Part shown: in pieces, positions 30,826-38,229 of the stretch | How the letters are laid out: each line of letters begins with the position of its first letter | Position numbering within the stretch: position 1 is the first letter of the stretch | Sequence record: MT129654.1 | DNA from: Escherichia phage MN04 | Length of the DNA stretch: 64,000 bases | Strand: one strand, 5' to 3' | Position numbers and translations under genes: made by a program | The notes under the pieces: generated by a model | What the model saw: only the letters and a program-made list of their open reading frames with translations | Told to the model about the DNA's origin: nothing | Database searches by the model: none

Positions 30826-31059
30826 ATGGGTGGTTTCGTTAATATCAAAACCTTTACGCATCCAGCTGGTGAAGGTAAAGAAGTTAAAGGTACTGAGGTT
30901 TCAGTCCCGTTTGAAATCTATTCAAATGAGCATCGTATTGCCAATGCTCATTATCAGACTTTCCCTTCGGCCGTTGCAGCCTATACTACTGTAGTGACTG
31001 ATGCAGCCGATTGGCGAACTAAGAACGCGGCGATGTTTACGCCAACTGATATTGTTTAA
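30826..31059 (+). CDS. soc: small outer capsid protein Soc
   Basis: 77 aa; FVNIKTF...AHYQTFPS matches recalled T4 Soc; exact late promoter TATAAATA 30787-30794 upstream. Confidence 0.8.
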   Translation: MGGFVNIKTFTHPAGEGKEVKGTEVSVPFEIYSNEHRIANAHYQTFPSAVAAYTTVVTDAADWRTKNAAMFTPTDIV

Positions 31060-32519: not shown

Positions 32520-32707
32520 TGGACTTATTTGATATGTTTGTCATTCCGGACCCTGAGCCTGAAACAACTCAGGAGCCGCCTGTTGACCTTGTCAACGAAC
32601 TTGATATGATTATACAGAAGCACGGTTTTAAGTTGCCTAAAGATGCCCTGGCTGACCTTGCTTCTTACTATCAAGACCCTCCACCATGGGCACCTTGGGT
32701 AAAATAA
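32519..32707 (+). CDS. hypothetical acidic protein (62 aa)
   Basis: ORF, overlapping start. Confidence 0.35.
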   Translation: MDLFDMFVIPDPEPETTQEPPVDLVNELDMIIQKHGFKLPKDALADLASYYQDPPPWAPWVK

Positions 32708-32940
32708 TGAATTGGCTAACTAATATACCTACATCGGCATTAGATATCGACCGTAAACAAGCCCGTAAGGAAATCGAGCAAAAAAATATTCAGGCAAAAG
32801 CTCCTAAGATTACGGCCAAGGCGCCGGAAATAAAAAGCTCTTATGAAACAAAAAGCTCTTATACTTCATATACCCAATCCCTAACAGGCCAAGCCGCTGA
32901 CATTGCGGTGTTTGGCGTCCCACTCGGTGTGTTTAAGTAG
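32707..32940 (+). CDS. hypothetical protein (77 aa)
   Basis: ATG overlapping the upstream stop. Confidence 0.4.
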   Translation: MNWLTNIPTSALDIDRKQARKEIEQKNIQAKAPKITAKAPEIKSSYETKSSYTSYTQSLTGQAADIAVFGVPLGVFK

Positions 32941-32997
32941 TTTACACCTCCTCCCTTCATGTTATAATGACCTCTAAATCACTGGAGGTCATATGAA
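32940..32997 (+). promoter_or_regulatory. early promoter plus SD-sequestering stem-loop before modB
   Basis: GTTTACA...TATAAT, then ATGACCTC / GAGGTCAT inverted repeat enclosing GGAGG and the ATG. Confidence 0.5.
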
Positions 32998-33562
32998 CAT
33001 CGAACAAAAATGTCTTTATCAAGACCGAATCAATTCCAAATTTTCAAAATCTGAACAAGCGTTGTTAGAGAAATGTCTGGATGCCAAAAAAGACCCTAAC
33101 TTCCATTACGACCTAGACAAACTGGTTCGTAAGCATGTCACTTCAGTGGTTCCGGTAGAGCTTTATCGTGGGATTACCACCAGAGAACTTGGGCAATTAG
33201 AGCTCCTTTCAGTAGGATGTCAATGGTCTCCTGGCCGGGTTACTTCTTTTAGTACACAATACTCTCAGGCTTGCCAGTTCGCAGGGTCATGGGAATATGG
33301 AACCAAAACCATTTTAAGTCTCAGGAATGCACCCTTCATTTTTGACTACTACAATCATGCTATCGACCTTGTTCTTGCAGGGAGTGCGGACGAACTTGAA
33401 ATAGATGAAACCCGTATTGACCTCTATGATATGGTCGAAACCGAATGTGAGTTCATGGTCTCTAGCCTATCACGATTTGAGATTGTTGAAATCGAAACTA
33501 TCAAAAGAGACCCATACGACATCGAGTACAAAATAATTCATTTAAAAATGTTGGATTTTTAG
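32993..33562 (+). CDS. modB: ADP-ribosyltransferase ModB-like
   Basis: R-S-E-type hints (LYRGIT, S-x-S, acidic E-x-E region); paralogous to the next gene; soc-dda locus as in T4. Confidence 0.5.
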   Translation: MNIEQKCLYQDRINSKFSKSEQALLEKCLDAKKDPNFHYDLDKLVRKHVTSVVPVELYRGITTRELGQLELLSVGCQWSPGRVTSFSTQYSQACQFAGSWEYGTKTILSLRNAPFIFDYYNHAIDLVLAGSADELEIDETRIDLYDMVETECEFMVSSLSRFEIVEIETIKRDPYDIEYKIIHLKMLDF

Positions 33563-33591
33563 TTTACAGGCAAGGAAGCTTGTGGTACTAT
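33562..33591 (+). promoter_or_regulatory. early promoter, PeSL-like
   Basis: GTTTAC, 18 nt, TACTAT. Confidence 0.5.
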
Positions 33592-33616
33592 CTTTCTATC
33601 AACTGAGGAGAATAAT

Positions 33617-34231
33617 ATGTTATATCCAAGCCATAAATTAGCAGAATTTATCAACAATGCCAAATGCGACGATTTCCGTGAGAATACCCAGATAGAAATT
33701 GATGAGGTGTATTCTGATTTAGAACAGAGCACGCTCTGGCAGTGTATGGAAAATAAACCTGATTCTATCCAGGAAACTCTGAACAAAATTATTCGTAAGA
33801 ACCTGACTTCTGTAGTGCCTGATAAGCTCTATCGCGGTATATCTAAAAAGACCCTGAAGTATCTAGAGTCCACAATGTGTGTGGGTGCGGTAATTGAATT
33901 CGACCGCGTGATGAGCTTCTCTAAAGACTTCAACGTAGCAAGGAATTTCGCATCTTATAACTTCTACGGCACATTTAATATCTTTTGTATTAATGATGCG
34001 CCATTTGTGTACAATTATCAGGAAGAAATCTTTAAAATGTTATGTGCTGCGCCCCCTGAAGAGTTCCCAGGCGCATTTCCTGAATCTACACGTGTAGCAA
34101 ACTTACAATTAATTAATGATGAAGATGAGATGATGTTCCCTGCGGGAACTACGCTGCGCGTAGACTCTATTGAGAGAAATCCTAAATGGAATAATTACAC
34201 CATTTGGAATCTTTCCGTTCTTTCTTACTGA
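33617..34231 (+). CDS. modA: ADP-ribosyltransferase ModA-like
   Basis: LTSVVPDKLYRGIS block shared with the upstream paralogue (HVTSVVPVELYRGIT); position matches T4 modA. Confidence 0.5.
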   Translation: MLYPSHKLAEFINNAKCDDFRENTQIEIDEVYSDLEQSTLWQCMENKPDSIQETLNKIIRKNLTSVVPDKLYRGISKKTLKYLESTMCVGAVIEFDRVMSFSKDFNVARNFASYNFYGTFNIFCINDAPFVYNYQEEIFKMLCAAPPEEFPGAFPESTRVANLQLINDEDEMMFPAGTTLRVDSIERNPKWNNYTIWNLSVLSY

Positions 34232-35119: not shown

Positions 35120-35419
35120 GTGATGTACTATGCATACGTATTAGTTCACAAGGACAAAGATGGGTATGAAATTCCATTAGAAGATGCCGGTGAAGTGACT
35201 TTGTATTCGACAAAGATTGGAGCCGACACTGCTTTAGAGGCTTATGAAATCTCAACAAAAAGATATCTTCGGCTTGGACGCCTTGAAACAGTGTGCACGC
35301 CAAGAAAGTGGTGGTTTGATAAGTGGGAAACTAAAACGGTTTTTCCTACCAAAGAACGGGCCCGAGAATTAAAATTGATTTTAGACACTTTATATGTTAA
35401 GCGAGTAAAATTGGCATGA
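35120..35419 (+). CDS. hypothetical protein (99 aa)
   Basis: ORF immediately upstream of dda. Confidence 0.45.
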   Translation: MMYYAYVLVHKDKDGYEIPLEDAGEVTLYSTKIGADTALEAYEISTKRYLRLGRLETVCTPRKWWFDKWETKTVFPTKERARELKLILDTLYVKRVKLA

Positions 35420-36747
35420 TTACATTTGAAGACTTGAATATTGGGCAACGGACGGCCTTTAAAGAAATCATTGAAGCTATTAAACGACGTAAGGGCGAAT
35501 GGATTACATTGAATGGTCCTGCTGGTACAGGTAAAACGACCCTTACTAAATTTATCCTTGACCACTTAGTCAAGAATGGCGAACTCGGAGTTATTTTGAC
35601 CGCACCTACACACGCGGCCAAGAAGGTATTGTCGAAACTCGCAGGCCAAGAAGCATCGACAATCCACCGAATCTTAAAGATTAACCCGACTACATACGAA
35701 GACCAGGATATTTTTGAACAACGTGAAGCTCCTGACTTGAGCAAATGTAATGTTCTTGTGGTCGACGAAGGCTCAATGATTGACGGTAAGTTGTTTAAGA
35801 TTATCGAAGCTTCAGTTCCGCCATGGTGCACTGTACTGGGGATTGGCGACCGAGCTCAGTTACAACCTGTAGAACCAGGAAGTGATGGAAGTCCTCAGTT
35901 GTCTCCATTCTTTACCCATCCTAAAATTAAACAGCTACACCTTACTGAAGTAATGCGTAGTAATGCTCCTATCATTGAGGTTGCTACTGAAATCCGTAAT
36001 GGTGGATGGTTCCGAGATTGTATATTCGAAGGTCACGGTGTCCATGGTTTTAAATCTCAAACGGCTTTAAAAGATTTTATGATGAATTATTTTTCCATCG
36101 TAAAAGATGCTGATGCCTTGTTTGAGAACAGGATGTTTGCTTATACAAATAAATCAGTTGAAAAACTGAATAGCATTATTCGTAAAAAGCTTTATGAAAC
36201 CGATACGCCTTATATCAAGGGCGAAATCCTCGTGATGCAAGAGCCTTTTATTAAGGAACTTGAATACGACGGTAAGAAATTCTCTGAAACCATTTTTAAT
36301 AACGGCCAGATGGTTCGTATTTTAGATGTGAACCACACCTCATTGTTCTTGTCTGCCAAGGATGTAGGCACTCGCCAGATGATTAATTACTGGGACCTCC
36401 AGGTTGAATCTGTTGATGAGGATGACGAGTACTATGTAGAACACTTGAAAGTTATTGATGAGGCTTCAGTTGAGAAGTTCCATTATTTCTTGGCTAAGGT
36501 GGCTACTGAGTACAAGGCTATGCGTGGAACAGGTAAGAAACCTAAGTGGGCTGATTTCTGGAAAGCTAAGAGAATGTTCACTAAGGTTCGAGCTCTTCCG
36601 GTGAGCACTGTCCATAAATCACAGGGTCTTACTGTCCAAAACAGTTTCATCTATACTCCGTGCATGCACATGGCAGATGCCAATTTAGCTTCACAGCTGG
36701 CTTATGTTAGTATTACCCGTGCTCGCACTGATGCCTATTATGTTTGA
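35416..36747 (+). CDS. dda: Dda DNA helicase (SF1B)
   Basis: 443 aa; Walker A GPAGTGKTT and VLVVDEGSM; matches recalled T4 Dda. Confidence 0.9.
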   Translation: MITFEDLNIGQRTAFKEIIEAIKRRKGEWITLNGPAGTGKTTLTKFILDHLVKNGELGVILTAPTHAAKKVLSKLAGQEASTIHRILKINPTTYEDQDIFEQREAPDLSKCNVLVVDEGSMIDGKLFKIIEASVPPWCTVLGIGDRAQLQPVEPGSDGSPQLSPFFTHPKIKQLHLTEVMRSNAPIIEVATEIRNGGWFRDCIFEGHGVHGFKSQTALKDFMMNYFSIVKDADALFENRMFAYTNKSVEKLNSIIRKKLYETDTPYIKGEILVMQEPFIKELEYDGKKFSETIFNNGQMVRILDVNHTSLFLSAKDVGTRQMINYWDLQVESVDEDDEYYVEHLKVIDEASVEKFHYFLAKVATEYKAMRGTGKKPKWADFWKAKRMFTKVRALPVSTVHKSQGLTVQNSFIYTPCMHMADANLASQLAYVSITRARTDAYYV

Positions 36748-37669: not shown

Positions 37670-37698
37670 GTTTACTTCTCCTCATGACATGATATTAT
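37670..37698 (+). promoter_or_regulatory. early promoter, PeSL-like with stem-loop
   Basis: GTTTAC, 17 nt, TATTAT; TCCTCATG / CATGAGGA inverted repeat. Confidence 0.5.
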
Positions 37699-37725
37699 CT
37701 ACCCTATCAACATGAGGAGAACAAA

Positions 37726-38229
37726 ATGAAAATTTATCGAGTTGAGTCATCGTTCAGTATCTTAGATGATGGAAACGCTATCACAATACGACGAGACCTC
37801 TGTACTCAAATGACTCCGTATAGAAGTACAATGGACTCATGGAGTGAAGGCTGGTTATTGGAAGTAGGTTTCGACAGACCCAATTTTAAGCATCGTCATA
37901 CCATCAATAAAAATATTCCACTACCAAGTCAAGATAAGTTGCTGGTAGAAAATTCTAATAAAACCATTAGAACTAAGTGGAAACGGCCTGATTATGAAGA
38001 CTGTGATGATTATATTCCAGGTTGGTTTGTTAACCTCTACCATTTTGCTTTTGCCAGTGAGTATGATATGATGCGCTGGTTCACTCGTGAAGAGCGTAAA
38101 GAATTATCTTCTAAAGGATTCTATCTTGCCGTTTACGAAATACCTGAAGATGAGGTAGTCATTGGTGACCGCCAAGTAATGTTCCGCAAGTCCCATGCTG
38201 AACTCGTAGATTTTATTGAAATGAGATAA
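37726..38229 (+). CDS. hypothetical protein (167 aa)
   Basis: GAGGAGAA SD behind a PeSL-like promoter. Confidence 0.5.
   Translation: MKIYRVESSFSILDDGNAITIRRDLCTQMTPYRSTMDSWSEGWLLEVGFDRPNFKHRHTINKNIPLPSQDKLLVENSNKTIRTKWKRPDYEDCDDYIPGWFVNLYHFAFASEYDMMRWFTREERKELSSKGFYLAVYEIPEDEVVIGDRQVMFRKSHAELVDFIEMR

Follow-up and report, generated by a model that had tools for sequence, protein, structure and literature searches.

Do the two neighbouring plus-strand open reading frames (ORFs) that lie between soc and dda in Escherichia phage MN04 (MT129654.1) encode the ADP-ribosyltransferases ModB and ModA known from phage T4, and what is the role of the hairpin that spans the translation start of the first? 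We analyzed both questions in a stretch of 64,000 nucleotides of this genome (the window), where ORF1 occupies positions 32993–33562 (189 amino acids) and ORF2 positions 33617–34231 (204 amino acids). The explanation that best accounts for the data, to which we assign as a whole a probability of roughly 0.8, is that ORF1 and ORF2 are modB and modA, that they probably encode arginine-specific ADP-ribosyltransferases expressed from early promoters of their own, and that the modB leader would serve as a translational gate. The gene pair in itself adds nothing new; the modest value of the locus lies in the modB leader, the number of mod copies and the assignment of a conserved Ser, and the fresh point is the conservation of a hairpin with an embedded early promoter.

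The locus is the modB–modA pair of phage JS98. In a nucleotide search, Escherichia phage JS98 (genus Dhakavirus) is 99.7% identical to the window over 1,501 bases, and its GenBank and RefSeq records name ORF1 modB and ORF2 modA; the genes are already annotated and are widespread, with Mod homologues in 1,068 phage records. An earlier note on this DNA had described ORF1 and ORF2 as tandem ModB/ModA-like paralogues that share a conserved block and occupy the place of T4 modB and modA between soc and dda. Its coordinates are correct, and both versions of the block (HVTSVVPVELYRGIT and LTSVVPDKLYRGIS) are present, within a similarity that extends along the full length of the two proteins (32% identity over 184 residues, E 7e-27). 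The placement is borne out by Soc at 30826–31059 (Pfam PF16855, E 7e-18) and Dda at 35416–36747 (Pfam SH3_14 and AAA_30), and by homologues of modA.2, Srd and Dda.1 and a Mrh-like protein, which occupy the gaps in the order found in T4; a dCTPase homologue is also among the genes between and around them. The T4 order is modA.2, modB, modA, srd, dda.1, dda; ORF1 is likewise the first mod gene after modA.2 and precedes srd and dda, and ORF2 is the second of the pair, directly upstream of srd. The modB and modA genes are separated by a 54-nt spacer in the window, whereas those of T4 overlap (ATGA). Between modA.2 and modB lies an 84-residue ORF (32686–32940) with a match to phrog_14077 (E 1e-35); the JS98 RefSeq record leaves it unannotated, and some relatives annotate a hypothetical protein in that stretch.

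Homology, motifs, position and predicted fold together assign ORF1 and ORF2 as the first- and second-position Mod ADP-ribosyltransferases. PHROG 832, 'RNA polymerase ADP-ribosylase', matches both ORF1 (E 3.5e-37) and ORF2 (E 1.5e-44). Profile searches of Pfam-A and NCBIfam returned no significant match for either protein, a result that is uninformative because T4 ModA and ModB are equally unmatched there; PF26816 is found precomputed on database homologues of Mod, and this entry is absent from the Pfam copy searched. Conserved residues were located in a four-way alignment of ORF1, ORF2 and T4 ModA and ModB (from NC_000866), and in a family alignment of 26 sequences that includes database homologues. 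An Arg in the motif L[YW]RG is common to all four proteins (ORF1 R59, ORF2 R73, ModB R73, ModA R72), and the four-way alignment further matches a Ser in V-x-S-[FA]-[ST] (ORF1 S85, ORF2 S100, ModB S99, ModA S96) and a Glu-x-Glu pair (ORF1 E151/E153, ORF2 E169/E171, ModB E171/E173, ModA E163/E165). On the plus strand of the window, the aligned ORF1 residues are encoded at 33167–33169 (R59, in LYRG), 33245–33253 (S85-F-S87) and 33443–33451 (E151-C-E153), and those of ORF2 at 33833–33835 (R73, in LYRG), 33914–33922 (S100-F-S102) and 34121–34129 (E169-D-E171).

The R, G, S, F and both Glu residues are invariant in 26 of 26 sequences. The catalytic Arg and Glu, on whose presence the earlier note had made its proposal depend, are in place: R, S-x-S and E-x-E recur as invariant motifs in both alignments, the second Ser of S-x-S being kept in at least 90% of the family, and they are shared with the T4 proteins, to which ORF1 (33% identity to ModB) and ORF2 (39% to ModA) align as had been suggested. 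ORF1 R59 and ORF2 R73 align with R73 of T4 ModB, a residue whose importance for catalysis has been demonstrated by experiment, and the 2023 RNAylation paper names the R-S-EXE motif (PMC10468400). The Glu-x-Glu motifs of both ORFs also align with the EQE stretch of XopAI, and the first mod copy of relative L023 (L numbers denote loci of relatives) has ExE in the alignment in the form S-E-L-E-W. As judged by these motifs and the models below, ORF1 and ORF2 are predicted to be R-S-ExE arginine-specific mono-ADP-ribosyltransferases of about 200 residues.

AlphaFold models of ORF1 and ORF2 have pLDDT values of 87.6 and 91.0 and pTM values of 0.83 and 0.84, respectively. The best Foldseek matches in the PDB include C3bot1, Certhrax, VIP2, CDTa and iota Ia, with a probability of 1.00 and E-values of 1e-6 to 1e-8, and further ADP-ribosyltransferases (ExoS/T, HopU1, XopAI and a toxin/immunity ADP-ribosyltransferase); over the whole set E goes down to 9e-8, and TM is about 0.5. 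ORF1 matched C3, Certhrax and VIP2, and ORF2 matched C3, Certhrax, ExoS/T, HopU1 and XopAI; when viral models are considered, phage ModB and ModA proteins rank first, and ORF1 reaches TM values of up to 0.92 with phage ModB models. A sequence-profile search against PDB chains gave nothing significant for either ORF (best E 0.07–0.75), and the link to solved ADP-ribosyltransferase structures is provided by comparison of the predicted folds only. The models place the Arg at the end of a strand, S-x-S on the strand after it and ahead of a helix, and E-x-E at the entry to a strand, which is the usual R-S-E layout. Older work on T4 reportedly named S109 of ModA and S111 of ModB as the Ser. That position corresponds to G98/S99 in ORF1, a disagreement that has to be set against our assignment; since it falls in the helix that follows and is not conserved, we take S-x-S on the strand as the motif, and the true Ser of the R-S-E triad appears, from the aligned sequences, to be this one and not the Ser of the older work. 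The reassignment bears on mutational studies.

Which T4 protein each ORF corresponds to is less sharply defined for ORF2 than for ORF1. ORF1 scores 85 bits against T4 ModB (33% identity, E 2e-25) and 32 bits against ModA. ORF2 matches ModA with 39% identity over 166 residues (E 8e-26, 86 bits) and ModB with 33% identity (E 3e-27, 90 bits). Its N-terminal half (EQSTLWQCMENK) is ModB-like, and in a neighbour-joining tree, which places all second-position copies with T4 ModA and all first-position and single copies, including ORF1, with T4 ModB, the split between the two sides has a bootstrap value of 60%, T4 ModA forms a long branch, and the single-copy lineages group on the ModB side. The near-equality of the two scores and the moderate support for orthology both speak against a simple equation of ORF2 with ModA, and would fit a different history, in which ORF2 stems from a ModB-like ancestor, the targets are divided in another way, and the RNA polymerase alpha subunit is handled by neither protein or by ORF1. 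We consider this unlikely: the best match of T4 ModA in the window is clearly ORF2 (86 bits versus 32 for ORF1), a clade with 99% support unites the second-position copies of three lineages and groups with T4 ModA, and the conserved gene order argues for ORF2 as the equivalent of ModA.

Compared with T4 ModB (NP_049636; an NAD-protein ADP-ribosyltransferase and RNAylating enzyme), ORF1 has R59 in place of R73 and E151/E153 in place of E171/E173; it occupies the same position, after modA.2 and before modA and srd, and has the same kind of leader, with an early promoter and a hairpin over the -10 box, the Shine–Dalgarno (SD) sequence and the AUG. It differs in an N-terminus that is some 15–18 residues shorter and in that it does not overlap the next gene. 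The catalytic residues R72, E163 and E165 of T4 ModA (NP_049635; the RNA polymerase alpha Arg265 ADP-ribosylase) correspond to R73, E169 and E171 of ORF2, which differs from ModA in its more ModB-like N-terminal region, in having its own promoter and in the 54-nt spacer. T4 ModB targets ribosomal protein S1, EF-Tu and trigger factor, and carries out RNAylation with NAD-RNA (PMC10468400; PMC3014915). By orthology and gene order, ORF1 would modify S1, EF-Tu and trigger factor, possibly with RNAylation from NAD-capped RNA, and ORF2 would modify Arg265 of both RNA polymerase alpha subunits; because these targets derive from position and a moderate phylogenetic signal, we infer them rather than assert them.

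The second question concerns the leader of modB. An early-type sigma-70 promoter lies at 32940–32968 on the plus strand (11 of 12 consensus positions, with TG), with a -35 element GTTTACA (TTTACA at 32941–32946), a 16-nt spacer and an extended -10 element TGtTATAAT (TATAAT at 32963–32968). It is of the type of the T4 early promoters, which have a UP/-35/TGn/-10 architecture (PMC2988021), and from the usual spacing transcription is predicted to start near 32975. As judged by folding and covariation, an RNA hairpin spans the modB translation initiation region (32956–33004, plus strand). The arms of the inverted repeat lie at 32959–32974 and 32985–33000, and the fold consists of an inner helix (32967–32976/32983–32992), which includes the SD, and an outer helix (32956–32963/32996–33004). 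Its minimum free energy (MFE) is -19.3 kcal/mol, versus -8.4 ± 2.3 in shuffled sequences (z -4.67; none of 200 shuffles was as stable). The earlier note had proposed a stem-loop that hides both the SD and the start codon. The hairpin is real and the SD (GGAGG, 32984–32988) is fully paired, with an unpaired probability of 0.00; the start codon (32993–32995) falls outside the claim, being located in a 3x3 internal loop between the helices with an unpaired probability of 0.61. T4 and most relatives have a paired AUG too. An Rfam search found no family at the hairpin.

The 5' arm of the hairpin contains or overlaps the -10 box of the modB promoter, and in RNA that begins at the predicted start, 32975, the hairpin is gone (MFE -5.0 kcal/mol, z +0.58). 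The structure would thus form only in RNA that comes from upstream, since RNA from the predicted start has no such fold. Translational control, also suggested in the earlier note, is supported by the structure and has to be refined in one respect: with the promoter inside the hairpin, a block would act on read-through transcripts only. Between the -35 and -10 elements, the spacer (32946–32958) is rich in pyrimidines; runs resembling CCTCC occur there in almost every lineage (for example, ACCTCCTCCCTTC) and could serve as a second anti-SD in read-through RNA.

Every lineage that we examined has the same layout of promoter, hairpin, SD and AUG upstream of its first mod gene, or of its only one. 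Across 24 aligned leaders of relatives, the -35, TG and -10 columns are invariant, the AUG is aligned, and a hairpin joins the -10 region to the SD and/or AUG in all. The T4 modB leader has a like arrangement with another stem (TATGATagcttct...ggaggctatcATG), so that the stem sequences of the two phages differ (AUGACCUCU versus AUGAUAGCUUCU). We counted covariation on the 16 sequences with a shared pairing register, because the register is shifted in L012, L034/L037, L020, Klebsiella phage Roth68 and a Krischvirus relative; these five further lineages keep the pairing of the SD and/or AUG with the register shifted or with pairs inserted. A single consensus structure for all leaders was ruled out by the same shifted registers. 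Among the 16 sequences, 98.9% of the cells of a 12-pair stem are paired, versus 27–58% when the 3' partner is slid by 1–3 columns; compensatory double changes occur at four pairs (G-C/A-U at columns 14-38, 8 versus 7 sequences, and at 15-37, 7 versus 6; further at 11-41 and 20-32), and the covariation score was reached by none of 500 shuffles. For read-through RNA of 19 leaders, the unpaired probability of the SD is about 0.00 and at most 0.24; for RNA that begins at the predicted start it is 0.22–0.77.

An inverted repeat at this place could also arise incidentally, the -10 box (TATGAT/TATAAT) being partly complementary to starts of the ATCATG type and CU-rich sequence standing opposite a GGAGG SD, and indeed 4 of the 12 pairs never vary, all of them in the -10 box or at or near the AUG, where the bases are constrained for other reasons. 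This we regard as scarcely credible, since positions free of such constraint covary (columns 14-38, 15-37, 11-41 and 20-32), the slid controls pair far fewer cells, and the SD is still sequestered in lineages with other registers or inserted pairs; leader hairpins have z-scores of -3.7 to -4.7, and the behaviour is seen in just 3 of 14 comparable leaders in the window, that of modB included. The element in the modB leader is genuine and conserved, has a promoter embedded in it and belongs to a known kind; we infer a translational role for it.

A different role for the same element would be that of a terminator or attenuator. PeSL (promoter-early stem-loop) cassettes of T4-type phages combine an early promoter with a stem-loop; reporter assays showed termination of transcription by these stem-loops, and JS98 was noted to contain PeSL-like sequences (PMC2839356; PMC4122927); if the modB stem-loop were of this type, it would halt transcription from upstream before modB and would not act on translation. 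The Krischvirus relative offers a suitable sequence, with a stem GCCUCC/GGAGGC followed by UUUUUAUU. In the window, however, the modB stem is followed by AUAUGAACAUCG, with no U-run; a terminator scan made no call at 32956–33004 and predicted no terminator on the plus strand between 32500 and 32990. Intrinsic termination by the stem in the window was rejected for lack of a U-tract, and most lineages lack one. Moreover, the 3' arm coincides with the SD and/or AUG in every lineage, even where the register is shifted. Termination does not require this, whereas it is expected under selection for hiding the ribosome-binding site. We judge the terminator reading improbable, and note that the two roles of the stem are not mutually exclusive.

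Based on these observations, we propose the following course of events. The modB and modA genes would each be transcribed from their own early sigma-70 promoter right after infection, and ModB and ModA would use NAD+ to ADP-ribosylate host proteins in the first minutes. The anti-SD segment lies over the -10 box and just 3' of it, which places it upstream of the predicted modB transcription start. RNA that reads through from upstream promoters would therefore form the hairpin and hide the modB ribosome-binding site, while RNA from modB's own promoter would lack the 5' arm and be translatable; the block would be limited to read-through RNA because the promoter lies inside the hairpin. Synthesis of ModB would thereby be confined to the period in which its immediate-early promoter fires. 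Over-expressed ModB is lethal (PMC3014915). With its end at 32940, the upstream ORF leaves 16 nt to the outer helix (32956) and 27 nt to the inner helix, and ribosomes that terminate there would therefore probably not open the inner helix. If such a gate exists, a toxic early enzyme is kept strictly immediate-early in spite of heavy read-through transcription.

The hairpin might instead protect or process the RNA, either by keeping a RegB-type endonuclease away from the GGAG of the SD or as an RNase III or stabilizing element. One known control in T4 is RegB-type cleavage of early SDs at GGAG (PMC3014915), and the motif that is paired here is GGAGG. Stems of 10–20 bp are short for RNase III, however, and there is no obvious benefit in protecting an SD that is closed to ribosomes, which makes protection or processing very improbable compared with a translational gate.

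The number of mod genes varies among relatives, as seen when loci L009–L019 and L031–L039 are compared with L003–L008 and L021–L029: JS98-like, T4-like and L023-like phages have two, and many other lineages have a single gene. In the tree, the ModB side holds every single-copy gene, and for this reason the ModB type may be the ancestral or universal form and the ModA type an addition, a polarity that has weak support (60%). The varying number bears on which activity is ancestral, ModB now being known to RNAylate host proteins. Some loci depart from the regular pattern. In L020 (1436–1626), one full mod gene is accompanied by a 44-residue in-frame remnant of the first, in which the N-terminal MTCQSE is fused to the C-terminal EQEYMVSGISRFEIV, and the early promoter and the SD-sequestering hairpin of this remnant are intact. 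The mod gene of L014 (1399–2073) apparently starts with GTG. L009 (1379–2067) has the leader of L010, but its open frame, which begins at an internal Met, has only 125 residues; this points to a frameshift or a sequencing error.

The modA gene has a weaker early-type promoter at 33563–33591 on the plus strand (TTTACA, 17-nt spacer, TACTAT; 9 of 12 positions). Its SD, GAGGAG at 33605–33610, is not sequestered, with unpaired probabilities of 0.34 (long form) and 0.48 (short form). A stem at 33564–33585 received a terminator-like call and fits the class of PeSL in which the stem lies between -35 and -10 (PMC2839356). Among relatives, L006 has complementary segments with other bases at this place (ACGAG/CTCGT), L004 has weaker ones and L020 none, and the stem is not formed in the predicted folds of L006 and L004.

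Of 14 early-type promoter leaders in the window, three hide the SD in the read-through form: those of modB, of the gene at 37726 (the motB.2 position) and, more weakly, of the gene at 542. In the leader at the motB.2 position (37670–37728; 167-residue gene), TTCTCCTCATG belongs to the promoter spacer, upstream of the predicted start, and forms a perfect 11-bp stem with CATGAGGAGAA, which covers the SD; the unpaired probability of the SD is 0.38 in the short form and 0.00 in the read-through form. T4 motB.2 (L040, 845–935, minus strand) has a like design in another sequence, with a 17-bp stem of -32.5 kcal/mol (z -7.5), which suggests that an 'anti-SD inside the promoter' is a recurring device in early genes. 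The leader at 484–560, before a 336-residue ORF that starts at 542, has a weaker fold, with an SD unpaired probability of 0.01 in the long and 0.48 in the short form. The segment CTATCAAC occurs 11 times in the window versus 2.1 expected (none of 100 shuffles reached 11), nine times on the plus strand, at sites that include 18301, 26626, 33596, 34334, 37704 and 47704; several copies follow early-type -10 boxes by a few bases, where the leaders of modA, srd and motB.2 begin to be transcribed.

An anti-SD placed in or just after an early promoter, upstream of the start, might constitute a general and conserved translational insulator that leaves a gene translatable from its own promoter only; we hold this extension as tentative, with chances slightly below even. 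At modB the arrangement has been kept over at least a dozen lineages and genera and repeatedly re-registered, even beside the remnant of a deleted gene, and motB.2 of JS98 and of T4 shares the design. If the extension is true, synthesis of a toxic, RNAylating ADP-ribosyltransferase would be confined to the immediate-early burst, and part of the PeSL 'terminators' would be translational gates.

Besides the near-equal scores of ORF2, the 60% split, the unpaired AUG and the older Ser assignment, a few considerations weigh against our explanation of the locus. The enzymatic activity of ORF1 and ORF2 is deduced from homology, motifs and predicted fold. The modB start is placed by spacing, and no map of transcription start sites of T4 or JS98 was found in our literature search. 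The sequences that contribute to the covariation are related, the structure was derived from the same sequences, and the start sites of the leaders are predicted. Finally, because two other leaders of the 14 behave alike, the feature may be a general property of such cassettes rather than a control specific to ModB.

As for known systems, ORF1 and ORF2 have a predicted fold in common with the R-S-E toxins (C3bot1, 2C89/1G24; Certhrax, 4FK7; VIP2, 1QS1; iota Ia, 4H03; CDTa; ExoS/T; HopU1; XopAI), with Arg, Ser-x-Ser and Glu-x-Glu in like order on the core strands. The toxins differ by their low identity (10–18%, TM about 0.5), which leaves them undetected by sequence profiles (E at least 0.07), and the Mod proteins, unlike the toxins, have an N-terminal helical bundle of their own and act within the infected cell without being secreted.

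For the leader, two known classes of T4-type elements are relevant, and our literature search, which did not cover several key T4 papers, found no prior description of the modB hairpin. In T4 e, soc, 49 and I-TevI, inhibitory structures keep long early transcripts from being translated, and RNA that can be translated arises from a proximal late promoter within the structure; the cases given do not include modB (PMC3014915). The modB leader resembles these in that its SD would be held in a helix in RNA initiated upstream and in that a predicted proximal promoter within the structure would give a shorter, translatable RNA. It differs in the kind of promoter: the four genes embed late promoters, so that expression is delayed, whereas modB embeds one of the immediate-early sigma-70 type, from which expression is predicted to occur only early. 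In the PeSL cassettes, a strong early promoter of sigma-70-like type, together with a stem-loop, often over the -10 box, is followed by an SD and an ATG, and the stems have been viewed as G/C-tract terminators and recombination sites beside ORFans, with translation never mentioned (PMC2839356; PMC4122927). The mod leaders are PeSL-like in that the modB stem overlaps the -10 box, the modA stem lies between -35 and -10, and an SD and ATG follow; unlike a PeSL, the modB element has the SD itself as its 3' arm, has no U-tract in the window, and is conserved with one gene family across genera. If the proposed gate holds, it extends the principle of T4 e, soc, 49 and I-TevI to early promoters, and the modB leader would, by analogy, combine a PeSL-like anatomy with the logic of the e gene, its timing reversed.

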